Assembly: GCA_905193755.1 (NCBI GenBank)
Contig: CAJJPX010000004.1
Coordinates: forward strand, 105-64,104
Length of the DNA stretch: 64,000 nt
Reading direction: 5' to 3'
From: an uncultured Clostridium sp.
GTDB lineage: Bacteria > Bacillota_I > Bacilli_A > RF39 > UBA660
Program-made: the position numbers and the translations under genes
Part shown: positions 3,385-35,063 of the stretch, piece by piece
How positions within the stretch are numbered: position 1 is the first letter of the stretch
Layout of the letters: each line of letters starts with the position of its first letter
The notes under the pieces: generated by a model
What the model was told of the DNA's origin: nothing
The model's input: the letters and a program-made list of their open reading frames with translations, nothing else
Database searches by the model: none

Positions 3385-3747
3385 TTATTTTCCTCCAAAT
3401 TCTTGCAAGTACTTAATAGATTCTTCATATGTTATACCTATACTATTCATAGAACTTAAATATTCATTTACTTTTTCTTTAGCTAGTTTTTCTTTAGCTT
3501 TGTTTATTACTTTTGAATCATTAGTAACATATTTACCATTTGTTCTTTCAGTATAAATTAGTTTTTCATTTTCTAGTTCTACTAAAGCTTTTTGCATAGT
3601 ATTTGGATTAACTTTGTAGTAAAATGCTAGCTCTCTTACAGAAGGTAATCTACTTCCTACACTTAATTTACCTGATACTATATCCAATTTAATAATATCT
3701 ACTAGTTGAATATAGATTGGTATATTGTTATCAAATGTATAACTCAT
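3385..3747 (-). CDS. GntR-family (YtrA-like) transcriptional regulator
   Basis: Winged-HTH region IYIQLVDIIKLDIVSGKLSVGSRLPSVRELAFYYKVNPNTMQKALVELE. Small size and linkage to an ABC pair fit the YtrA subfamily. The ATG at 3747 is preceded by AAGGAG. Confidence 0.85.
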   Translation of the reverse strand: MSYTFDNNIPIYIQLVDIIKLDIVSGKLSVGSRLPSVRELAFYYKVNPNTMQKALVELENEKLIYTERTNGKYVTNDSKVINKAKEKLAKEKVNEYLSSMNSIGITYEESIKYLQEFGGK

Positions 3748-26469: not shown

Positions 26470-27120
26470 TTAACCTAATAATTTTCTAATATTATTTAAT
26501 ATACATTCATCAATTTTATCATCTGATGATAATTTTATTTTTTTGTTATTTCTAGGATATCCATTAATACTTTTTAATATTAATATCCATCTATAATCTA
26601 TTGTATTTAACAATTCACTCTTATTATTATTTATTTCATTTAATAAATTTGTATCAATTTCTATATATTCGTTACCTTTTGCATAATTGTATATTTCAGT
26701 ATCTTTGCCATTAATTATTTTGAATCTCCAAGATACATCATTTTTTAAAATTTCAACTATTTTTTCAATTGTTTGTTGATATGTTGCTTTAATCTTTGTG
26801 TTTTCAAAATTTATTTTTGATATTTCTTTTAATTCATAATTTTTTTCAATATAAATGTTAATTAGTTCTTTTATATATTTTATTATTATAGGCATCTTTA
26901 ATATATTAGTTGACTGTTTTAAATCAAAGAATATAATTTGATTCCAATAATACTTTATATATTTTTCTGCAATTTCATCAAATTTTATAATTACTTTTTC
27001 TTTGCTTAAATCATGTTTTAATGATAGTTCAACAATTGATTTTCCCCATGCCATTTTATAAGTATTATCATAATTACATTCTCTAATTATTTGTTTAAAT
27101 AATTCATATTTATTTTTCAT
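26470..27120 (-). CDS. hypothetical protein (216 aa), third gene of the AIPR-ARH cassette
   Basis: SD AGGAAG overlaps the stop codon of the ARH gene. Only an N-terminal NTYKMAWGKSIVELS helix motif is notable; no catalytic motif was recognised. Confidence 0.6.
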   Translation of the reverse strand: MKNKYELFKQIIRECNYDNTYKMAWGKSIVELSLKHDLSKEKVIIKFDEIAEKYIKYYWNQIIFFDLKQSTNILKMPIIIKYIKELINIYIEKNYELKEISKINFENTKIKATYQQTIEKIVEILKNDVSWRFKIINGKDTEIYNYAKGNEYIEIDTNLLNEINNNKSELLNTIDYRWILILKSINGYPRNNKKIKLSSDDKIDECILNNIRKLLG

Positions 27121-27128
27121 TATACTTC

Positions 27129-28370
27129 CTAACTATATTTTTCTATAAATTTACTATGTATATCTTTTAAGTATTCATCTAAATATGTCATGCCTTTATT
27201 ATAAATATTTTTTGGTATTCCATAGTATGCTGCTGCAATACCTCCTACTACTGCTGCTATAGTATCGCTATCTCCGCCTATTGATATAGCATTTCTTATT
27301 GAATCTTCATAATTTGTTGATTCTAAGAAACATACTATTGCCATTATCACTGTATCTATACATTTTATACTTCCCTTTATGCCTGATTTCTTTATATCAT
27401 CAAGTGATTTATCTAGTTTAATGTAATTGTTTTCAATATAGTATTTTATATATCCTTTTGTTTTATTTTGAAGAGCTAGATGTATGGCCATGCATACAAT
27501 TTCAGCACCCATCAAACTTTCTTCGTGATTATGAGAAACATTAGTTACGATTTTGCATACTTCTTTTATAGTTTCTTCATCTTTAAATGCTACTGGTATA
27601 GCGCTTACTCTCATAGCTGCTCCATTAGCATAACTACCATATGGTTTATGATCAGTAGTTAGCCATCTTAGAAAACCTGAACCATATCCACAATTTGGAT
27701 ATTTAAGACCTACATTAACCATATCGTTTATAACTAATTCTTCGAAAGTATCAATACTCTTATATTCTAATAATGCTTTTGCTACTGCAAATGTCATAAC
27801 TGTATCATCAGTAAATTCATCTCTAGGATCAAAGAATTCAAATTTTTTACTTTTAAAACCACTAAATTCATATATAGAACCTACTATGTCTCCTATAGCA
27901 GTTCCCATTACAACATCTCTTATGTTTTTATCTATTTTATCATCATCATTTATCATATCAGCTAATGCTTTTTTCCAGTTAGTAAATATTTCTATTGGTT
28001 TTCTTTCACTTGTTAAATATTTTTCTAGATATGGTTTATACTTATCATATAATCTTTTATCAACTGAAAGTCCATTACCAAATCCCATATAAATATATTG
28101 ATATTTTCCTTGATAGTTTTCATTTTTACAATTTTTCCTGGTTTCATACCATTTAGGAAAAACTTTTATAGCATCCTTTAACAATATTGAATCTTCTGTT
28201 CTTTCACCATACATCCAGCCATCTACTCTATAAAGAATGAATGTATTATTTTCTTTCATAACAAATGATATTCCATCTTCATCCCACATTCTTCCGGGAT
28301 TAGTTATGAACATTAAATTATCTTCATTTAATTTTAAAAATTCTTCTTTTGTTATTGTATTTGCTATCAT
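27129..28370 (-). CDS. ADP-ribosylglycohydrolase (ARH/DraG family) with an unassigned N-terminal domain of about 150 aa
   Basis: ARH signatures VMGTAIGDIVGSIYEF, FTDDTVMT and GGDSDTIAAVVGGIAAAYYGIP. Residues 1 to about 150 have no match I can name. Confidence 0.85.
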   Translation of the reverse strand: MIANTITKEEFLKLNEDNLMFITNPGRMWDEDGISFVMKENNTFILYRVDGWMYGERTEDSILLKDAIKVFPKWYETRKNCKNENYQGKYQYIYMGFGNGLSVDKRLYDKYKPYLEKYLTSERKPIEIFTNWKKALADMINDDDKIDKNIRDVVMGTAIGDIVGSIYEFSGFKSKKFEFFDPRDEFTDDTVMTFAVAKALLEYKSIDTFEELVINDMVNVGLKYPNCGYGSGFLRWLTTDHKPYGSYANGAAMRVSAIPVAFKDEETIKEVCKIVTNVSHNHEESLMGAEIVCMAIHLALQNKTKGYIKYYIENNYIKLDKSLDDIKKSGIKGSIKCIDTVIMAIVCFLESTNYEDSIRNAISIGGDSDTIAAVVGGIAAAYYGIPKNIYNKGMTYLDEYLKDIHSKFIEKYS

Positions 28371-28405
28371 TATTTATTCTCCTTTAGAATGTAATCTGTG
28401 ATTTT

Positions 28406-30154
28406 TTAATCTGCTGTCCATCTAGCTTCGAAATCAGATACGTCACATTTTAGATTTGACATTAAATTATTATATGTTTCCATTCCACCTGGTAGCATTT
28501 TCATTGCATTTAATGTTAATGATACACTACTTCTAATATCAGTTAAGCTCTTTTTTGCTTTAATCCAGTTTTGTGGACTAAATACTTTATTACCAGTTTG
28601 TGGTTCACTTGCTGCGGTTTGAAGTGCAATATTTAAACAATTGCCTGCCATATTGACAACATTTTCTAAAGACCCACTATTTTGTAATTTTTCTAAAGCA
28701 ACTACTGGATTGATAACTACTTCTCCAGGCACTCCATTAGCTACACTGAAAAACAATGAAATTGCATATAAATGATGGTATGGTGCATATGCTTTCATAG
28801 CCAGTAACGATTCATTTAAATCTAAAGGATTTGCTTTTGTCCATTTACTAATAACTTTTTTCCATAAAGTATTTAATGCCATTATTTTTTCAGGTTCATA
28901 ATCTTTTTTAAATAATTGATCAAAATATTTATCAAATATTTTAGTTGGACTATATGCAATATTTGGTCTTTGTGAATGCCATGTCATCAAATATTTTCCT
29001 AGTGCTTCTAGATCAATTGTGTAGTCTTCATCTTTTGATGGCAATCTTGTTTCACCACGTTTAGTCATTAATTGTCCATTGCTATATTTTTGTTCATATG
29101 CTTTTTTCATAGCAAGAACTCTTTTATCATTACTTCTTAAATCTCTTGCTTTAACTGTACTTTGTGAATTAGTATTTGTACTAATCTTATCTCCTGTTGC
29201 TCTATCTGGAACTTCATAGAATCTAAACATTACATAAGCATTGTTTTCTTCTTTTACTTTTTCACTACAAGATAAGATTGTATTTAATGATTGACATCCA
29301 TTGACTACATTAAGCTCTTTTAATGTCAATTTATTATCATTTAATTCCATTTTAGAACATATTGCAGTTATTCCATTATGATAAAAGAAAAAGTTATTAG
29401 GTTCTTCATATATTGATTCTTTAATTCCTTTATTTACTGGATTACTAATTCCAAGAGATTGTCTAACATTTTTCTTAAATAATGTTTGATCCTTTATTCC
29501 GGGAATATTAATGCATTCTTTTAATGGAATTGCAGCCATAATTACTTTAACACCACCAATATTCATTGATATACATTTATCAAGTTCTAAAGTCATTGTA
29601 TGAACTATATTTGGATTTTCTTGGCCAAGTGCTACATCATATCTTCTTTCTAATTCATCTTTATTTATTAGACTAAGTGTTGCTGAAAAATCATCTGATT
29701 TTGCTAATTGTTCTTGAAATACTTTAAGATCTTTTTGGGCGCTTTCTGTTAATTGTGATGGGATAAGTAGTTCAAACTCTATGTCATAATCATCTTCTAA
29801 TCCTCTTGCGACTTCTGATAGTTTTTGTCTTAGTTTCTCATTTGCATTTTCTTGTAATTTAACTATATTTTTTAATTGTATCCATGATGATAATACTTCT
29901 CTCAATGGTTCTGCATCTATCAGTTTTTCTCTATAAAATTTTCCTTGAATAATATGTATTATTGAATTAATTTCATCAATATAAATAGCATCGAATTGTT
30001 TGTCATTTGGGCCATCTGTAATACAATATTTTGCTTCATTTTCATCTAAATTATAAATATTTCTTAAATACCATGCAACGAACCTTTGCCCATCGTTTGG
30101 ATAATTATTTATATAATAATTATTTTTTATTTCATTTTCTATTTTTTCTATCAT
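28406..30154 (-). CDS. AIPR-family (abortive-infection phage-resistance) protein
   Basis: N-terminal nuclease-like block DGPNDKQFDAIYIDE...IIHIIQGKF, central YHNGITAI...VVNGCQSLNT, and a long helical C-terminus, as in the AIPR family. Confidence 0.8.
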   Translation of the reverse strand: MIEKIENEIKNNYYINNYPNDGQRFVAWYLRNIYNLDENEAKYCITDGPNDKQFDAIYIDEINSIIHIIQGKFYREKLIDAEPLREVLSSWIQLKNIVKLQENANEKLRQKLSEVARGLEDDYDIEFELLIPSQLTESAQKDLKVFQEQLAKSDDFSATLSLINKDELERRYDVALGQENPNIVHTMTLELDKCISMNIGGVKVIMAAIPLKECINIPGIKDQTLFKKNVRQSLGISNPVNKGIKESIYEEPNNFFFYHNGITAICSKMELNDNKLTLKELNVVNGCQSLNTILSCSEKVKEENNAYVMFRFYEVPDRATGDKISTNTNSQSTVKARDLRSNDKRVLAMKKAYEQKYSNGQLMTKRGETRLPSKDEDYTIDLEALGKYLMTWHSQRPNIAYSPTKIFDKYFDQLFKKDYEPEKIMALNTLWKKVISKWTKANPLDLNESLLAMKAYAPYHHLYAISLFFSVANGVPGEVVINPVVALEKLQNSGSLENVVNMAGNCLNIALQTAASEPQTGNKVFSPQNWIKAKKSLTDIRSSVSLTLNAMKMLPGGMETYNNLMSNLKCDVSDFEARWTAD

Positions 30155-30186
30155 TCTTGATACTCCTTTTTTCTTTTATATATATT

Positions 30187-30195
30187 ATTATATCA
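30187..30195 (-). promoter_or_regulatory. extended -10 element (TGATATAAT) upstream of the AIPR gene
   Basis: On the minus strand, TG-N-TATAAT lies about 33 nt upstream of the ATG, followed by SD AAGGAG. Confidence 0.45.
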
Positions 30196-30236
30196 CAATT
30201 AATTTAGTAAATATTTTTATTACTAAACTGAGCGAG

Positions 30237-30650
30237 TTATTTACTAATTATCTCAATCGTTGTTTTATCTCTTTTGCCATTATAAAATTTATCTATTACT
30301 TTTGAAAATATTTTTTCTTCTGGAAATGCATATTCAAATAGAGTCATACTTGAATTTAATTTTAAATAATCTGGATATCCCATTATATATTTAATATCTC
30401 CATCTTGTTTTAGTAGTTCATCACATATTTCTAACATATTATTTTTTAGATAAGAGTTACTCATATATTCTTTTGCTTCTTCTATTCCATCTAAACCATA
30501 GAATTTTGAAGTTAAACTTCTACCTAATTCTTTTAATTGTGGGAATATATACCACATCCAATGGCTTCTTTTATAACCATTTTTTATTTCTTGTAATGCA
30601 GTTTCATAGTATTCTTTATGCATTTCTATAAATCTATCTATATTATACAT
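30237..30650 (-). CDS. DUF1810-family protein
   Basis: Signature KRSHWMWYIFPQLKELGRS...GIEEAKEYM. The start is taken at MYNIDRF (30650). Confidence 0.8.
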   Translation of the reverse strand: MYNIDRFIEMHKEYYETALQEIKNGYKRSHWMWYIFPQLKELGRSLTSKFYGLDGIEEAKEYMSNSYLKNNMLEICDELLKQDGDIKYIMGYPDYLKLNSSMTLFEYAFPEEKIFSKVIDKFYNGKRDKTTIEIISK

Positions 30651-30652
30651 AA

Positions 30653-30826
30653 CTACCACCCATACCATTGATCAACGTCTGGATCTTCTGGACTATATTT
30701 ATTAACACATACTTCTTCCCCGTCATCACCATAATAACATTCTTGGTATGTTCTTCCACCTGCTGATGTTGAAGTGCATCCAATACATAACATCATAACT
30801 AATAAAAGTATAAATAGCTTTTTCAT
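30653..30826 (-). CDS. small putative lipoprotein (57 aa), absent from the ORF track
   Basis: My translation is MKKLFILLLVMMLCIGCTSTSAGGRTYQECYYGDDGEEVCVNKYSPEDPDVDQWYGW. SD GAGAGG lies 7 nt upstream. It has a K-K n-region, a hydrophobic core and a lipobox-like LCIGC. Its stop is 2 nt before the DUF1810 ATG. Confidence 0.5.
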   Translation of the reverse strand: MKKLFILLLVMMLCIGCTSTSAGGRTYQECYYGDDGEEVCVNKYSPEDPDVDQWYGW

Positions 30827-30844
30827 ATATTAACCTCTCACTTA

Positions 30845-33082
30845 TTACTGTTTATTATAACATATTTCTTTTATTTCATTAATAAAAACACTTTGCTTAG
30901 TTTCATCTTTATTAACAAGTAAATATACTTTATTCTTAGTTCTAGTAAGCGCTACATAGAATAATCTTCTTTCTTCAGCATAAGGTATTTTTTCTATAAC
31001 ACTCGGATATTTAAATAATGAATTAATCCAGTATGTGTCTTTATCACTAGATGGAAAACTTTTGTTAAGACCTATTACTATTACTTCATCAAATGTTAGT
31101 CCTTTAGATTTATGAATAGTCATTCCTTCTAATTCTATATCTTCATAACCAACAAATGATATTTTAGTACCAAGTTCATCTGTTAGATAATCAGTATCAA
31201 AGCATTTATTTATAATAGCATTCGTTCTTCCTAAAACTAGTATGTTATGATTAGGATTGTTCTTATAAATATCAAGTATTATTTCTTTTAGTTTGTCATA
31301 TTCGTGATCATTATCAAAGTATATGAATTCTATAGGCTTATCTATATGTTTATTTGAAATTAAATATTTCTTTATTTGATCTGGATTTCTCATTACAAAC
31401 TCACCAGATACATTTAGAAGTTCTTGACTATTTCTATAGGTTCTACTGATTCTAAATATTACTGCATCTTTAAAATATTTTTTAAAGTTGTATGTATATT
31501 CTATTCTTGAACCACTAAATGAATATATACTTTGCCAATCATCTCCAACTGCATATATCTTTGCATGATTTCTTTCGAGTGTCTTTCTTGCTAATTCATA
31601 TTTATATTGAGATATATCTTGATACTCATCAATTATTATATATTCAAAATTCAAATCATTATTTATGCCTATATTTTCTATATATTTATTTGCATAATAA
31701 AGTAAGTCAGAATAATCAAATTTATATACTTCAGAACCATATAACACACTTTGATAATAAACATAAAATTCATTAAAATAAATATATTCTTTTTTAGCTT
31801 CTTCTTTTTCATCAGTTAATGTTTCTATATAATTTTTAATAATGCTTTTATAATTTTCTCTGTTAACTGATTCTTTTATTACGTTCACTATTTCATAGAA
31901 GAAGTTCTTAAATGGATACATTATTGATAGTTTGTTATTATCAAGTATTCTTTCATATATTTCTTCATCAGTTCTAGGTTTATACTTAATACCAAATTCT
32001 TTCAATTTTTTATCTAATTCATTTTCTATATTTTCTAGTGGTACTTTATCTAATTCTATAAATTTATTATTATGTTCTTTATGAAATTTTATTTTTTGTT
32101 CTTTATTTTTATTATATTTTTCATCATCTAATCCAAAGTATTCTATATATATTTCTTCTCCGCCTATATCTATGGTAAAGTCTGGCTTATATATTTTTTT
32201 GTCATCCATAAGTTCAGTATATATTTTTTCATATGAATAGATTATTCCTATTTTATATAGAAAATTTGCAATTACTGCTTCTGATGCAGACTTTACATAT
32301 TCACCTTGTATAGTGATTATATCTTCATTATTGATTTTTCTCTCTATCCAATTATCTATGAATTCTTTGAGACCGATTGAAGTGTTTCTTGCTTCTTCTA
32401 TTTTATATTTTTTATATTCTTTTATTAGTTGTTCAAATGTATCATATTTTTCATAGTTTTGTAAGAACCATTTACTAAATACCCAAGACATACCTGTCCT
32501 ATTTATGTTAAATGTATTTATTATATCTTTTAACTTATTTTTGTCTTTAAAAATCATGCTAAAATAATTAAAGAATATTTCTTCTTTGTCATTATAATCT
32601 ATTACAGTGCATTTTCTATTACTGAATATGTTTCTAATGTATTCATATCCTAAGGAATGAAATGTTGTTATGTGTGCTGGTATATTGAAATCTACTAGTA
32701 TTCTCTTTTCTAGTTCCTCAGTAGCCTTTTTAGTATAACTCATTACTAATATTTTTGAAGGTTCTACTTTTTTAATGTCAACTAAATATTTTACTTTAGC
32801 TGTCATTGTTGTCGTCTTTCCTGTTCCAGCCCCTGCAATTATTAAAGCACTATCTTCATCACTTAGTATTGCTTTTATTTGTTCATCATCAAGTAATATG
32901 TTATCATCTATTCCCTTAAACATATTTTGAAAATAATCTTTGTATTTTTCTTTTATAGTTTCTAATACTTTATTGTTATGTTCTTCTATATTAAAACTTT
33001 GATATTCAGCTTTTACTAATTCATATATTCTATTTGATATATATTCATTATTCTTTATTTTATTTAAAAATTCCTCTCTCAT
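30845..33082 (-). CDS. UvrD/Rep (helicase IV-like) SF1 helicase with embedded PD-(D/E)xK-like module
   Basis: Walker A AGAGTGKTTT, motif II IIIDEYQDIS, then RTYRNSQE, TIHKSKGLTFDEV and FYVALTRTKNKVYLL. The insert at about aa 255-345 reads SASEAVIANFLYKIGIIYSYE...YKPDFTIDIGGEEIYIEYFG. Confidence 0.85.
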   Translation of the reverse strand: MREEFLNKIKNNEYISNRIYELVKAEYQSFNIEEHNNKVLETIKEKYKDYFQNMFKGIDDNILLDDEQIKAILSDEDSALIIAGAGTGKTTTMTAKVKYLVDIKKVEPSKILVMSYTKKATEELEKRILVDFNIPAHITTFHSLGYEYIRNIFSNRKCTVIDYNDKEEIFFNYFSMIFKDKNKLKDIINTFNINRTGMSWVFSKWFLQNYEKYDTFEQLIKEYKKYKIEEARNTSIGLKEFIDNWIERKINNEDIITIQGEYVKSASEAVIANFLYKIGIIYSYEKIYTELMDDKKIYKPDFTIDIGGEEIYIEYFGLDDEKYNKNKEQKIKFHKEHNNKFIELDKVPLENIENELDKKLKEFGIKYKPRTDEEIYERILDNNKLSIMYPFKNFFYEIVNVIKESVNRENYKSIIKNYIETLTDEKEEAKKEYIYFNEFYVYYQSVLYGSEVYKFDYSDLLYYANKYIENIGINNDLNFEYIIIDEYQDISQYKYELARKTLERNHAKIYAVGDDWQSIYSFSGSRIEYTYNFKKYFKDAVIFRISRTYRNSQELLNVSGEFVMRNPDQIKKYLISNKHIDKPIEFIYFDNDHEYDKLKEIILDIYKNNPNHNILVLGRTNAIINKCFDTDYLTDELGTKISFVGYEDIELEGMTIHKSKGLTFDEVIVIGLNKSFPSSDKDTYWINSLFKYPSVIEKIPYAEERRLFYVALTRTKNKVYLLVNKDETKQSVFINEIKEICYNKQ

Positions 33083-33204: not shown

Positions 33205-34047
33205 TTATTTTTTAAATAGTTCTTCTACAATTAAATCTTTTGAATGTAAGTTATTATTTTTTCCTAACAATAAATTTTCATAAAATTTAATTAAGAAACT
33301 ATTATCTTCTTTTATATTTAAATCATTATTAAAGTAGTTACTTCTTACTAAAGCGTTTCTAAAATATACCGATTTTTCTTTGAACATTGTGTTGTTAACA
33401 GAATATCCTAGTGATACTAAATATTTTTCTATGAATAATGCCGTAGTTCTAGTATTGCCTTCTCTAAAAGGGTGGATTTGCCATATGTTTGAAGAAAAGT
33501 TAGCTATATTATTAATTACATCAACTATATTCATTTCTTCATATTTTTTACTTTTTTCTAATGATATATCATAATCTAGTGATTGTTCTAATAACTTGTA
33601 ATCTCCATATGCTACTGAATCATTATTTAAAATTATTTCAGACTTTGAAAAATTTATTTTTCTAAACTCACCTGCAAACTCATAAACATCTTGAAATAAA
33701 AACTTATGAACATATTTTAAAAAGTCAATTGATAAATTAAAATTATCTTTATTTAATAGTTCAACTATTCTAGTGGATACAAAATCACATTCTAATTCAT
33801 TATGATCCACATTATTTTTACTTTCTTTCTCTGAATAATATTCTTTCAATTCTTTTTCAACTTCTTCAATTGTTAAATTGCCTTCCACTTCTTTTTCTAT
33901 TAGTTTTTCAAGATATTTAGATGGCTTTAAATTATCAACTTCTTGAAGTCCAATAGCCATATCCCATTGCAATTGTTTAACATAATTACTAGAATTATAT
34001 TCTTCTTTGTATTCATTAACACTTGAATCTAATTCTTCTTCGTACAC
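33205..34047 (-). CDS. Fic-family protein
   Basis: Fic motif HPFREGNTRTTA, a variant of HxFx(D/E)GNGRxxR. Confidence 0.85.
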   Translation of the reverse strand: MYEEELDSSVNEYKEEYNSSNYVKQLQWDMAIGLQEVDNLKPSKYLEKLIEKEVEGNLTIEEVEKELKEYYSEKESKNNVDHNELECDFVSTRIVELLNKDNFNLSIDFLKYVHKFLFQDVYEFAGEFRKINFSKSEIILNNDSVAYGDYKLLEQSLDYDISLEKSKKYEEMNIVDVINNIANFSSNIWQIHPFREGNTRTTALFIEKYLVSLGYSVNNTMFKEKSVYFRNALVRSNYFNNDLNIKEDNSFLIKFYENLLLGKNNNLHSKDLIVEELFKK

Positions 34048-34250
34048 TTTGTCACCTCCGTTGATAATATTATAACTTATTTTTTTTTGCTTGTCAGTAT
34101 TACTGACATAAAATATAACTTCGTTGTAAGCCGAAAAATATTTTTATTTTTGCTTCAAAGATATGATACATTTAAAATATTTGTAAAATACCACTTACTA
34201 TATTTTTATTATCTATTAATAATGTTATAATGCAGTTAGAGGAGATAGCT

Positions 34251-35063
34251 ATGAAAAAGAAAAAATATTTATTAATGTTAATTGTTTCATGTTTGTTATT
34301 ATCAGGATGTGGAAAAGAAAATACTAAAATGCTTGAAGGAATCAGTATTGAAGAAGGATGTTATGTTAATGAGAAAGATTCAGAACATCTAATGTGTTTC
34401 ACTGATAGTTCTTCAATGGATAGCGTTCTTTATAAAGATGGTATTTATTATAACGATAAATATTATCATACAACAATGCCTACTGAAAAAGAAAATTATT
34501 CTTATACTTTTAAAGTAGATGAAGGCGTAATCACTGTAACTTATTATAAAGACTCTAGTATACTTTATGGACAAGTTTGTACAGCAGCTTCTAATGATTC
34601 TATGAACTGTAATGAAATTGCTAATGTAACTGGAGAAACTGAAAATAATGAAGTCACTTATAAAAAGGTAGATAAAGAATTTAATAAAGACATTATTAAT
34701 AATTTACCTATTTATGAAAGAGATAGAGAATTTGAATTAAACTTCAATGGAACAAAAATAACTTGTAATATCACTAGAAATTACTCTATACTTGAAAAAG
34801 CTAGTGGTTCAGTAATTCAAGATTGTTTAAGTAATTATTATAATGAATTATATACTTGTACGCAATTAGATAAAACTGATAAATGGCAAATATATTCAGT
34901 AAGTGAAGTTAAGCAATATAGTGCTTCTGACTATACAAGTTATGTGATAAATAACTATAGCTATAATGTAACAGTGAATGAAACTAAATTTAGATATGTA
35001 GATGCTTTTCCTATAAATCCAATTACTTCTAAAGATAAAATGATTGTAAATATAACTAAGTAA
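34251..35063 (+). CDS. lipoprotein, function unknown
   Basis: MKKKKYLLMLIVSCLLLSGCGKEN has a lipobox LLSGC. SD GAGGAG and an extended -10 TGTTATAAT (34223-34231) lie upstream. Confidence 0.7.
   Translation: MKKKKYLLMLIVSCLLLSGCGKENTKMLEGISIEEGCYVNEKDSEHLMCFTDSSSMDSVLYKDGIYYNDKYYHTTMPTEKENYSYTFKVDEGVITVTYYKDSSILYGQVCTAASNDSMNCNEIANVTGETENNEVTYKKVDKEFNKDIINNLPIYERDREFELNFNGTKITCNITRNYSILEKASGSVIQDCLSNYYNELYTCTQLDKTDKWQIYSVSEVKQYSASDYTSYVINNYSYNVTVNETKFRYVDAFPINPITSKDKMIVNITK

Follow-up and report, generated by a model that had tools for sequence, protein, structure and literature searches.

Organisation of the locus

The window (the whole stretch of 64,000 nucleotides analysed here) carries on its minus strand a gene for a 745-aa helicase, behind which lie a small ORF and a DUF1810 gene. 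The features referred to below are the following.

30845..33082 (-), stop codon included: helicase gene, whose 745-aa product is an SF1A helicase resembling helicase IV with a predicted nested nuclease domain (ORF, Pfam, NCBIfam, AF2 and Foldseek)
32810..32836 (-): Walker A (motif I), AGAGTGKTT, residues 83-91, with K89 (sequence; nearly invariant in 40 homologues)
31733..32596 (-): module in the 1B slot, residues 163-450 (seen in the secondary structure of the whole-protein model and by comparison with HelD)
31988..32323 (-): predicted PD-(D/E)xK-fold nuclease core, residues 254-365 (Foldseek against PDB and BFVD, AF2, conservation)
32279-32281, 32180-32182, 32141-32143, 32093-32095 and 32081-32083 (-): codons of the putative active-site residues E268, D301, E314, K330 and H334, in this order (codons verified)
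31616..31630 (-): motif II, DEYQD, residues 485-489 (invariant in 40 homologues; codons verified)
30653..30826 (-): small ORF of 57 aa, its product secreted or lipoprotein-like; it opens a cassette separate from the helicase (homologues, dN/dS, synteny)
30237..30650 (-), in an ORF extending to 30668: DUF1810 gene, which follows the small ORF in the cassette and encodes 137 aa when counted from M7 (Pfam PF08837)

A helicase IV-like motor with an enlarged 1B slot

The ORF is as the sequence-only reading described it, an SF1 helicase of 745 aa with every UvrD/Rep motif in place: Walker A, TFHSLG, DEYQD, AVGDDWQSIY, TYRNS, TIHKSKGL and ERRLFYVALTRTK. These SF1 motifs are invariant across an alignment of 40 homologues. 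Pfam recognises UvrD-helicase (PF00580, 8.3e-39), AAA_19 and UvrD_C (2.6e-17), and the top NCBIfam match is helicase IV (NF008276), at 253.7 bits and hence below the cut-off of 543. The full-length AF2 model (pLDDT 89.7, pTM 0.85) retrieved UvrD/PcrA/Rep first in Foldseek (E 1e-19 to 1e-16), followed by AddA, HelD and RecB, with AdnB also matched. By its conserved motifs and its RecA-like 1A/2A fold, the protein is therefore an SF1A helicase of the UvrD/Rep/PcrA-like kind. We also considered Gabija (GajA+GajB) and rejected it: there is no adjacent GajA, the neighbours being Fic and the small ORF, and the GajB models match only through the generic UvrD core.

The motor is preceded by only 63 residues, and in the full-length model motif VI closes the protein at residue 745. 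In UvrD, Rep and PcrA a 2B accessory domain of about 170 aa separates motif IV from motif V; the full-length model holds no UvrD-type 2B domain, the roughly 100 aa from TYRNS (548-552) to motif V (655-667) being modelled as strands and helices of 2A. The distance between Walker A and DEYQD is about 190 aa in UvrD and about 400 aa in the window helicase. The model places in this interval a 1B-slot module made of a bundle of helices whose two parts (163-250 and 372-448) enclose the predicted nuclease domain.

The nested domain has a predicted restriction-endonuclease fold

An insert between Walker A and DEYQD had been proposed to carry a restriction-endonuclease fold, and a profile and structure comparison of it had been suggested. 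Once run, this comparison gave a PD-(D/E)xK fold. The AF2 model of the domain is confident (pLDDT 89.5) and consists of helices at 266-277 and 321-336 and strands at 282-284, 302-306, 309-316 and 340-345; the peptide quoted in the sequence-only reading (SASEAVIANF...IYIEYFG) corresponds to residues 265-317. The significant Foldseek matches of the insert in PDB and BFVD are exclusively PD-(D/E)xK nucleases. In PDB, Bax1 is the closest solved structure (6.7e-4) and is accompanied by R2 RLE, Can2, Hjc, RecU and VRR-Nuc, while the BFVD matches comprise DUF2726 proteins, Vsr homing endonucleases and restriction enzymes, with E values down to 2.4e-6. Since the phage DUF2726 proteins and Vsr-type homing endonucleases are among these matches (E 2e-5 to 5e-4), the original guess of a Vsr/restriction-endonuclease fold was sound.

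Profile matches of the insert are weak: NCBIfam Bax1 at 5.2e-5, a PDB profile at 0.0024 and PADLOC HEAT_CxxC_PDDEXK at 2.2e-6, with T7 endonuclease I also among them. Searched alone against Pfam, the insert gives nothing above threshold (DUF790 only, E 0.0079), and neither DUF2726 nor Vsr matches it at E <= 10. The top phmmer matches in PDB were to spermidine acetyltransferase, with Bax1 scoring 0.088 in the same search; we judged the former spurious because they are confined to the helical region before the nuclease core. Together with the conserved acidic residues described below, the model and the structural matches support the assignment of the insert to the restriction-endonuclease fold, with a conserved active-site constellation.

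A conserved putative active site

Conservation was assessed on 153 domains from 150 representative proteins, pairwise less than 50% identical. The putative E-PD-E site consists of E268 on helix 1 (149 of the 153 domains), D301 at the start of strand 2 (149) and E314 on strand 3 (151), P300 being conserved in 152 of 153. The canonical ExK lysine two residues after the glutamate is not present in the 153-domain alignment: residue 316 is F in 124 domains, Y in 23 and W in 4. A second conserved pair, K330 (151) and H334 (149), sits on the helix after strand 3, with K330 lying 16 residues past E314. In R2 RLE the catalytic lysine is carried by helix 2, some 17 residues past the D/E (D39, D/E52 and K69 in R2Bm; PMC4838377), and with this precedent K330 could possibly be a substitute for the missing lysine at E+2.

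In the profile alignment, D301 and E314 fall onto the PDF and YIE motifs of Bax1. The published catalytic residues of AfBax1, D305 and E318 (PMC7293015), lie within the aligned stretch (286-326), and E268 is at the spacing expected for AfBax1 E275 (PMC7293015). Bax1 likewise has no lysine at E+2 (EIVG/EIAG). These observations point to the nested domain as a probable nuclease.

Comparison with known helicases and nucleases

The closest motor is that of E. coli DNA helicase IV (HelD, b0962; NF008276), which shares the SF1A 1A/2A core, all motifs and the absence of 2B. BLASTP aligns no more of the window helicase to it than residues 34-170 and 456-740, at 31% identity. Where the window helicase has 285 aa, E. 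coli helicase IV has 102, so that about 180 residues are extra in the 1B slot here; we ruled out that the insert is already present in the E. coli protein, the hhalign probability of the insert profile against HelD being 0.1. Conversely, the N-terminal domain of helicase IV (about 170 aa) is missing from the window helicase, whose first aligned residue, 34, stands opposite residue 172 of HelD. At the 1B and 2B positions, helicase IV and HelD are each known to depart from UvrD, and they are also unlike one another there (PMC8655204). The RNA-polymerase-recycling HelD of B. subtilis and mycobacteria also has a helicase IV-like scaffold with a lineage-specific 1B module and no 2B (PMC8655204), but HelD/HelR bear an N-terminal secondary-channel arm and a 1B clamp arm, whereas the window helicase lacks the arm and holds a nuclease fold in the 1B slot (NCBIfam HelR, 16.5 bits against a cut-off of 1100).

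Archaeal XPB-Bax1 (Bax1 = Pfam DUF790; PDB 6P4O/6P4F/6P66) is nearest to the insert both among solved structures and among sequence profiles. Both share a PDF...Y(I/V)E(I/Y)xG(F/L) signature, an E-D-E acidic triad and the lack of lysine at E+2. Bax1 is, however, a separate protein of 370-480 aa that binds an SF2 helicase, while here a core of about 110 aa is covalently nested in an SF1 motor. The insert scores below the Bax1/DUF790 cut-offs (Pfam PF05626, 15.4 against 28.8 bits; NCBIfam NF053694, 22.4 against 500), and only the nuclease core aligns. The Bax1 nuclease is mechanically coupled to its helicase at the ss/ds junction (PMC7293015).

R2 RLE resembles the insert in fold, in D-13-E-16-K spacing and in the lysine on helix 2. 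Like the phage DUF2726 and Vsr-type homing endonucleases, it is a top structural match in PDB/BFVD, with an unrelated protein context and no sequence-level family membership. Domains homologous to the insert are found at the C-terminus of PADLOC PDC-S69 (3.5e-17), PDC-S68 (1.6e-15) and HEAT_CxxC_PDDEXK (2.2e-6), which differ in architecture (proteins of 289 aa and about 1200 aa) and are candidate systems only; our literature search found no paper naming PDC-S68, PDC-S69 or PDC-S72.

AddA, RecB and AdnB also combine a UvrD-like SF1 motor and a PD-(D/E)xK nuclease in one polypeptide. In AddA/RecB-type enzymes the nuclease is terminal (C- or N-) and the proteins mostly form heteromeric complexes, the partner subunit being AddB or RecC; here it is internal (254-365), and no partner gene is conserved in 80 loci. 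Nhi and Dna2 are likewise single-polypeptide SF1 helicase-nucleases with a terminal nuclease domain.

Distribution and genomic context of the family

The family comprises 583 clusters (50% identity) at E <= 1e-30 and 7,546 at the looser E <= 1e-3, and spans Bacillota, Bacteroidota and Saccharibacteria. The presence of the helicase is sporadic (10 of 41 genomes of the genus, 18 of 101 of the family, 3 of 61 and 1 of 61 in two other families), and one copy within the genus is decayed to a pseudogene. Five copies were found on plasmids and two on phages; with so few, mobility of the gene is not obvious.

The helicase had been placed in a defence context, and defence genes are indeed found in the island, both in the window and in near relatives. 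Helicases of near relatives are flanked by ThsB-TIR, PLD-SNF2, AAA_15, Dnd, RloB/AAA_21, KAP, methylase+McrBC, GmrSD, AbiE, Fic (PDC-S72) and AIPR. Not counting the layout of the window, there are six near-relative layouts; in five of them, L127 being the exception, recognised defence genes adjoin the helicase on one or both sides. For 80 family members that are more distant, the immediate neighbours (130 proteins) show no enrichment in defence genes. Immediate neighbours in the wider family are mostly housekeeping genes, the commonest among distant members being RecQ and response regulators (5 of the 130 neighbour proteins each), and a role in repair or recombination therefore fits as well. 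PADLOC tallies of DpdF and PsyrT among the neighbours were read as cross-matches of RecQ-type helicases, because they coincide with the five RecQ-type neighbours in Pfam (RQC, HRDC, RecQ_Zn_bind). When all ORFs of 80 species-level loci outside the window were clustered, no conserved partner gene emerged for the window's subfamily.

The small ORF and DUF1810 form a separate cassette

The gaps of 18 nt and 2 nt between helicase, small ORF and DUF1810 reported by the sequence-only reading hold with the likely DUF1810 start at M7 (position 30650 of the minus-strand ORF 30237-30668). A GAGAGG lies upstream of the small ORF, and the DUF1810 Shine-Dalgarno sequence does reside in the last codons of the small ORF, as GGGTGG upstream of the DUF1810 ATG. 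No terminator is found between the three genes in the window; a promoter scan told little at the 25% GC of the sequence, giving 51 sites against 43 expected. The DUF1810 product matches Pfam PF08837 at 163.1 bits (cut-off 25; 4.3e-48) and PDB 2JEK (Rv1873) at 7e-25, and our literature search on DUF1810 returned nothing relevant.

The small ORF has 30 homologous clusters (65-93% identity), in which G16, C17, S19, T20, Y27, Q28, E29 and C30 are invariant. Its product has a K-rich N-terminus, a hydrophobic core and the invariant G-C, with C, F, I or T at position -3, which is atypical for the lipobox [LVI][ASTVI][GAS]C; a diverged relative has a TM anchor instead. The dN/dS ratio is 0.33-0.72 between diverged copies of the small ORF and 0.15-0.30 for DUF1810. 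DUF1810 lies 1-2 nt after the small ORF in every context with an intact copy, and the pair recurs without the helicase in four contexts: behind a 208-aa protein, AIPR, a Dnd cluster and, after an 800-nt gap, a restriction-type cluster. In the closest relative (L115) the DUF1810 stop overlaps the start of the ARH gene. The ancestral layout is one in which small ORF and DUF1810 head a DUF1810-ARH-orf216 operon, and the two genes are a separate cassette that merely abuts the helicase here.

A probable single-polypeptide nuclease-helicase

We consider it probable, if far from certain, that the helicase is a stand-alone single-polypeptide nuclease-helicase of a hypervariable defence island, separate from the small ORF and DUF1810. 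The 1B position is the fork or junction contact in UvrD-type helicases. ATP-driven 3'-to-5' translocation by the SF1A 1A/2A motor closest to E. coli helicase IV would feed DNA past this position, where the complete restriction-endonuclease-fold domain carried by the 1B-slot helical bundle would cut, coupling unwinding and cleavage within one chain in analogy to the two-protein archaeal XPB-Bax1 machine. We infer the 3'-to-5' polarity and the coupling, and likewise the role in defence, which would most likely be the degradation of invading phage or plasmid DNA.

It is rather unlikely that the protein is instead an accessory DNA-repair or recombination enzyme that processes stalled forks, flaps or bubbles on its own chromosome, be it as a bacterial single-chain counterpart of XPB-Bax1 or as an auxiliary of a helicase IV/RecQ pathway, its location in a defence island being incidental. 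Its nearest named helicase is a chromosomal 3'-5' helicase, its nearest solved nuclease is a helicase-coupled repair nuclease, the wider family has mostly housekeeping neighbours with RecQ jointly the commonest, and plasmid and phage collections are nearly without copies. Against this reading stand the patchiness within one genus, with a pseudogenised copy, and the one to three occurrences per 61 genomes in two other families, as well as the defence genes flanking near-relative copies and the nuclease domain shared with PADLOC defence candidates. We regard it as extremely improbable that the fold is catalytically dead and serves only to bind DNA, as a wedge or pin, or to interact with other proteins, like the clamp arm in the same slot of HelD. 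The E-x-K lysine is missing (F/Y316) and modules without catalytic function are known from the 1B slot in this clade of helicases (PMC8655204), but E268, D301, E314, K330 and H334 are 97-99% conserved among representatives less than 50% identical, which is hard to account for without catalysis, Bax1 lacks the same lysine, and the helix-2 lysine of R2 RLE is catalytic (PMC4838377).

The claim that helicase, micro-lipoprotein and DUF1810 make up one unit found no support in the comparison, and a co-transcribed defence system with interdependent parts is very unlikely. Such a system would fit the tight spacing without a terminator, the identical gene order in L115, an 86%-identity relative with DUF1810 directly behind the helicase, and an 80%-identity relative in which DUF1810, orf216 and helicase occur together in a different order. 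All of these cases, however, come from a single narrow lineage, and one ancestral layout that was later altered by insertions and deletions accounts for them. The search for this linkage in other genomes found it only with helicases of at least 80% identity, and repeatedly broken there: DUF1810 is not within 5 kb in relatives at 83-84% and 72% identity, and about 10 kb of cargo separates helicase and cassette in a 97% relative. Across 80 species-level loci, DUF1810 or the lipoprotein is absent beside the helicase except in the one 80%-identity relative; the 79 more distant loci hold neither, and no neighbour cluster is conserved. Among the 101 family genomes, 18 have the helicase domain, 6 have DUF1810 and 2 have both (about 1 expected), namely the window itself and a genome whose DUF1810 is a pseudogene and lies on another contig, so that co-occurrence is at chance level. 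The pair's recurrence behind four other upstream contexts shows that the cassette is independent of the helicase. The comparative data thus already largely refute the three-gene system. The three tightly packed genes may nevertheless be co-transcribed in the window and in L115, in both of which no terminator separates them, and co-transcription would entail some regulatory coupling.

Proteins that join a helicase to a nuclease play central parts in DNA repair (RecBCD/AddAB, Dna2) and phage defence (Nhi, Hna). To our knowledge, the nuclease is a terminal appendage in the characterised SF1 helicase-nucleases; a complete, strongly conserved endonuclease core inside the motor, at the DNA-junction contact, therefore predicts a different geometry of unwinding-cleavage coupling. 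Our literature search on helicase IV and nucleases found nothing describing a nested-nuclease architecture and no paper on this family, and database records annotate the family only as 'UvrD-helicase domain-containing protein', with no Pfam model for the insert. The helicase IV/HelD scaffold appears to diversify by exchanging what it holds in the 1B slot, which is a clamp arm in HelD and a predicted nuclease in the present family. Going further, we propose tentatively, and with more doubt than conviction, an uncharacterised class in which this scaffold has its 1B module swapped for a Bax1-like endonuclease, a bacterial one-polypeptide XPB-Bax1 analogue that would work on its own against phages or plasmids, unwinding the invading DNA and cutting it at forks. 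As a separate possibility, recombination at the conserved 5' part of the small ORF could serve to swap defence cargo into the island. Annotators should not take DUF1810 or the micro-lipoprotein for a partner of the helicase, as the two have a cassette of their own tied to an ADP-ribosylglycohydrolase and other small-molecule enzymes. ARH homologues do lie near the helicase in two of the 80 loci, both from Clostridia (L069 and L070), which we judged to be chance.

Gene organization at the helicase locus

The host genome is a metagenome-assembled genome of 1.34 Mb, with roughly 25% GC and 74% completeness. ORF calling places the three genes at the locus as follows:

30845-33082, minus strand: SF1 helicase, 745 aa
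30653-30826, minus strand: small lipoprotein-like ORF, 57 aa
30237-30668, minus strand: DUF1810 gene

DUF1810 homologues, 139-142 aa long, begin at the residue that corresponds to M7 (30650). With this start, we recover the gaps of 18 nt (helicase/small ORF) and 2 nt (small ORF/DUF1810) that a sequence-only reading had described. A GAGAGG lies 5' of the small ORF and a GGGTGG lies inside its last codons, 5' of the DUF1810 ATG, just where that reading had put the Shine-Dalgarno sequence. Since the gaps are short and no terminator was found between the three ORFs, their sequence makes co-transcription plausible in this genome.

A nuclease-fold domain nested in a helicase IV-type motor

Pfam recognizes UvrD-helicase, AAA_19 and UvrD_C in the helicase, and all the SF1 motifs ascribed to it are present, with the Walker A (residues 83-91) and DEYQD (485-489) motifs separated by about 400 residues, roughly twice the UvrD spacing. 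Among NCBIfam models DNA helicase IV scores best, with 253.7 bits, which falls well short of that model's cut-off of 543 bits. In BLASTP against E. coli K-12 HelD, residues 34-170 align with HelD 172-307 and residues 456-740 with HelD 410-676, both at about 30% identity. The limits of these alignments show that the N-terminal roughly 170 residues of E. coli HelD are missing from our helicase and that its middle is longer, with 285 residues between the aligned halves versus 102 in HelD.

In a confident full-length AlphaFold2 model (40 homologues; pLDDT 89.7, pTM 0.85), a short helical N-terminus (residues 1-63) precedes domain 1A, which is followed by a helical bundle (residues 163-250 and 372-448) in which an alpha/beta domain (about residues 254-365) is nested; the remainder of 1A and then 2A come after the bundle, and 2A of this model contains no 2B-sized insertion. 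The leading Foldseek matches were UvrD, PcrA and Rep (about 1e-19); AddA, AdnB, HelD and RecB came after them. The ATPase motor is intact. Helicase IV and HelD are like UvrD/PcrA in 1A and 2A only, the 1B position being a lineage-specific module that forms the clamp arm in HelD (PMC8655204). Our helicase is a third variation on this scaffold.

We modelled the insert separately (residues 232-412; 29 sequences at 28-72% identity; pLDDT 89.5) and obtained the element order helix, three strands, helix, strand. All significant matches of this model among solved structures are PD-(D/E)xK nucleases: Bax1 (6.7e-4, probability 1.0), the R2 retrotransposon endonuclease, Can2, Hjc, RecU, VRR-Nuc and Cas4. 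The best matches among predicted viral structures (2e-6 to 5e-4) include DUF2726, 'restriction enzymes' and Vsr-type group I intron homing endonucleases, and therefore the initial suggestion of a Vsr/restriction-endonuclease fold was sound. Sequence profiles are weak but mutually consistent: Pfam DUF790 (0.0079), Bax1 (0.0024) and T7 endonuclease I (0.17) in the PDB, NCBIfam Bax1 (5.2e-5), and in PADLOC HEAT_CxxC_PDDEXK (2.2e-6) and the candidates PDC-S69 (3.5e-17) and PDC-S68 (1.6e-15).

Profile alignment places P300-D301-F302 on the PDF motif of Bax1 and Y312-I-E314 on its Y(V/I)E motif. The catalytic acids of AfBax1 are E275, D305 and E318, superimposable on E5/D36/E50 of VRR-Nuc (PMC7293015); the AfBax1 stretch aligned to the insert, 286-326, contains D305 and E318, and E268, on the first helix of the insert, is spaced as the third acid should be. 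Two positions past the strand-3 acid, where a lysine is canonical, the insert has F316; Bax1 likewise lacks this lysine. In the insert, a K330...H334 pair is conserved on the next helix instead. The catalytic lysine of R2Bm was mapped to the corresponding helix, 17 residues past the D/E (PMC4838377). When 153 domains from the best 150 proteins (mutual identity <50%) were re-aligned, the following residues were conserved:

Conservation in the nested domain (domains of 153)
Before the PDF motif: S265, 146; E268, 149; A272, 152; N273, 151; Y282, 152; E285, 148
PDF motif: P300, 152; D301, 149; F302, 152
Strand-3 acid and after: E314, 151; Y323, 153; K330, 151; H334, 149

The nested nuclease fold hence carries a near-invariant E-D-E-K/H set. 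This pattern looks like that of an active enzyme, and the domain probably has nuclease activity; because its residues are so conserved, a catalytically dead nuclease is unlikely.

Nuclease-helicase fusions are of a known kind. What sets this one apart is its topology: a helicase IV-type motor without 2B holds a Bax1/DUF2726-like core in its 1B slot. We found no published description of this large family in the literature searched, and no Pfam model for the insert; in the PD-(D/E)xK census paper, 'UvrD' appears nowhere and DUF790 is given only as co-occurring with helicases.

Distribution and possible function

A search of 1.84 billion representatives with the domain profile yielded 7,546 clusters at E <= 1e-3, 2,474 at <= 1e-10 and 583 at <= 1e-30. 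Most matches are 750-1,300 aa long with the domain at about residues 250-480, that is, the same architecture; named records belong to Bacilli, Clostridia, Bacteroidales and Saccharibacteria. Within the window's genus the domain was found in 10 of 41 species sampled (one copy riddled with stops), and within its family in 18 of 101 genomes, or 14 of the 80 that are >=90% complete and <=5% contaminated. A Bacteroidales family had it in 3/61 genomes and a Clostridia family in 1/61. It is found on just 5 plasmids and 2 phage contigs, and records that annotate it read 'UvrD-helicase domain-containing protein'. The gene is accessory and patchily distributed, and seems to be exchanged horizontally. 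In one species of the genus (G230:C1:1324560-1325072) the nuclease region has decayed and contains 7-9 in-frame stops, which fits ongoing loss.

By analogy with its relatives, the helicase would move 3'-to-5'; it may cut DNA at or near the junction touched by the 1B region, with unwinding and cleavage coupled in a single chain. In the window's lineage the gene belongs to a defence island that is hypervariable. Its gain-and-loss pattern favours a role against invading DNA, as do the presence of Fic (PDC-S72), AIPR/AbiU and AbiEi/Eii in the same island, that of ThsB, Dnd, McrBC, RloB and GmrSD near the helicase in relatives, and the homology between the nuclease domain and PADLOC candidates. Against this role, distant members sit among ordinary genes, and the commonest of the 130 immediate-neighbour proteins at 80 loci are response regulators and RecQ-type helicases with RQC, HRDC and zinc-binding domains (5 each; for RecQ, L039:2613-4694, L075:4069-6216, L029:7545-9326 and others). 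An accessory repair or recombination enzyme is therefore a serious rival, albeit one we consider rather unlikely.

The helicase has no conserved partner

The sequence-only reading had joined helicase, small ORF and DUF1810 into one system. No neighbour cluster is conserved across 80 species-level helicase loci (31-80% identity), and in just one of them (L002, 80% identity) does DUF1810 lie near the helicase, 2.7 kb upstream and with the genes ordered differently. The family sample contains 18 genomes with the helicase domain, six with DUF1810 and two with both, against about one expected by chance; these two are the window's genome and another with a DUF1810 pseudogene on a separate contig. 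The three-gene system is thus largely refuted, and the helicase has no conserved partner. In near relatives, a single ancestral layout recurs in repeatedly disrupted forms:

Layouts at loci of near relatives (ARH, ADP-ribosylglycohydrolase; orf216, the gene after it)
L115 (small ORF 93% identical to the window's): NT5C-helicase-small ORF-DUF1810-ARH-orf216-type I methylase, tightly packed
Window: the L115 layout, with AbiE, a lipoprotein gene and Fic added upstream of the helicase and with AIPR (28406-30154) added between DUF1810 and ARH
L084 (helicase 86%): helicase-DUF1810, without the small ORF
L082/L083 (helicase 97%): helicase, 32-codon small-ORF stump, about 10 kb of cargo, full small ORF and DUF1810
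L087, L125 (helicase 83-84%): helicase-DNA methylase-McrBC
L127 (helicase 72%): different context

From helicase to orf216, the genes of L115 (1745-6496; compare window 26470-33082) have gaps of 1-15 nt or overlap, the DUF1810 stop overlapping the ARH start. The AIPR gene between DUF1810 and ARH, together with Fic and AbiE upstream of the helicase, therefore indicates insertions at several junctions of one island. As far as the proposed operon goes, we see the ordinary patchwork of an island.

Directly upstream of the helicase, window 33205-34047 (minus strand) encodes a 280-aa Fic-domain protein; nearly its whole length matches PDC-S72, a single-gene candidate in PADLOC (E 2e-80). Between AbiEii and Fic, the sole plus-strand gene within the island (34230-35063) is a 277-aa lipoprotein-like ORF with a signal peptide and LLSGC, and with no Pfam match.

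An unannotated 180-250-aa protein adjoins the helicase in about 9/80 loci from Clostridia and Bacteroidales (L017:3876-4592, L019:3848-4591, L031, L045, L047, L051:7492-8202, L069:8112-8729, L077:8012-8569, L079:7598-8128) and is absent from the window. It has the N-terminus MTELEKIERAKMYIDKLANGINP... and a weakly HTH-like C-terminus, and is likely a partner for this subfamily. Its domain also stands at the C-terminus of very long ORFs (L053:1713-7706, 1997 aa; L046:267-4442, 1391 aa), both of which fell into the helicase cluster.

The small ORF and DUF1810 form a separable cassette

Judging from its conservation, the small ORF is a real, conserved gene: its homologues form 30 clusters (65-93% identity) that share an invariant GC..ST......YQEC, and diverged copies, when compared, give a dN/dS of 0.33-0.72. 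In all contexts examined, the intact small ORF is followed by DUF1810 at 1-2 nt. Four contexts lack the helicase: after a 208-aa protein, after AIPR, after a Dnd cluster, and downstream of a restriction-type cluster with an 800-nt gap between. Because the pair holds across contexts, these four included, the unit is small ORF plus DUF1810, and the helicase is separable from it.

The genes 3' of DUF1810 vary (ARH; MazG-like and Schlafen-type helicase; GNAT and pyrophosphatase; unrelated genes). Small-molecule or nucleotide enzymes recur directly 3' of the pair (L110:5665-7692, L112:5680-7707, L118:4611-5937), which hints at a DUF1810 role in nucleotide or ADP-ribose chemistry.

The L083 stump (3539-3637) and a full small ORF (L119:4001-4189), counterparts of window 30653-30826, lie on one contig (logan SRR31240009_41388). 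The stump directly follows the 97%-identical helicase, and the full small ORF with DUF1810 stands about 10 kb downstream; they bracket PLD-SNF2, AAA_15 and DndCDEA. Both copies have in common an imperfect direct repeat of about 50 nt, from the putative lipobox to the YQEC codons. As the stump diverges exactly past YQEC, the small ORF seems to have, in its 5' part, a site where defence cargo recombines.

At L002, a TM-anchored peptide of about 80 aa (1406-1663) is encoded 212 nt 5' of DUF1810 (1876-2289), and a GmrSD gene separates DUF1810 from an orf216-helicase pair. The peptide has an acidic tail with two cysteines, CYDDEDGRIVCDEYY, of the pattern CY(D/G)D.DG..VC, which is similar to the mature part of the small lipoprotein-like ORF of the window.
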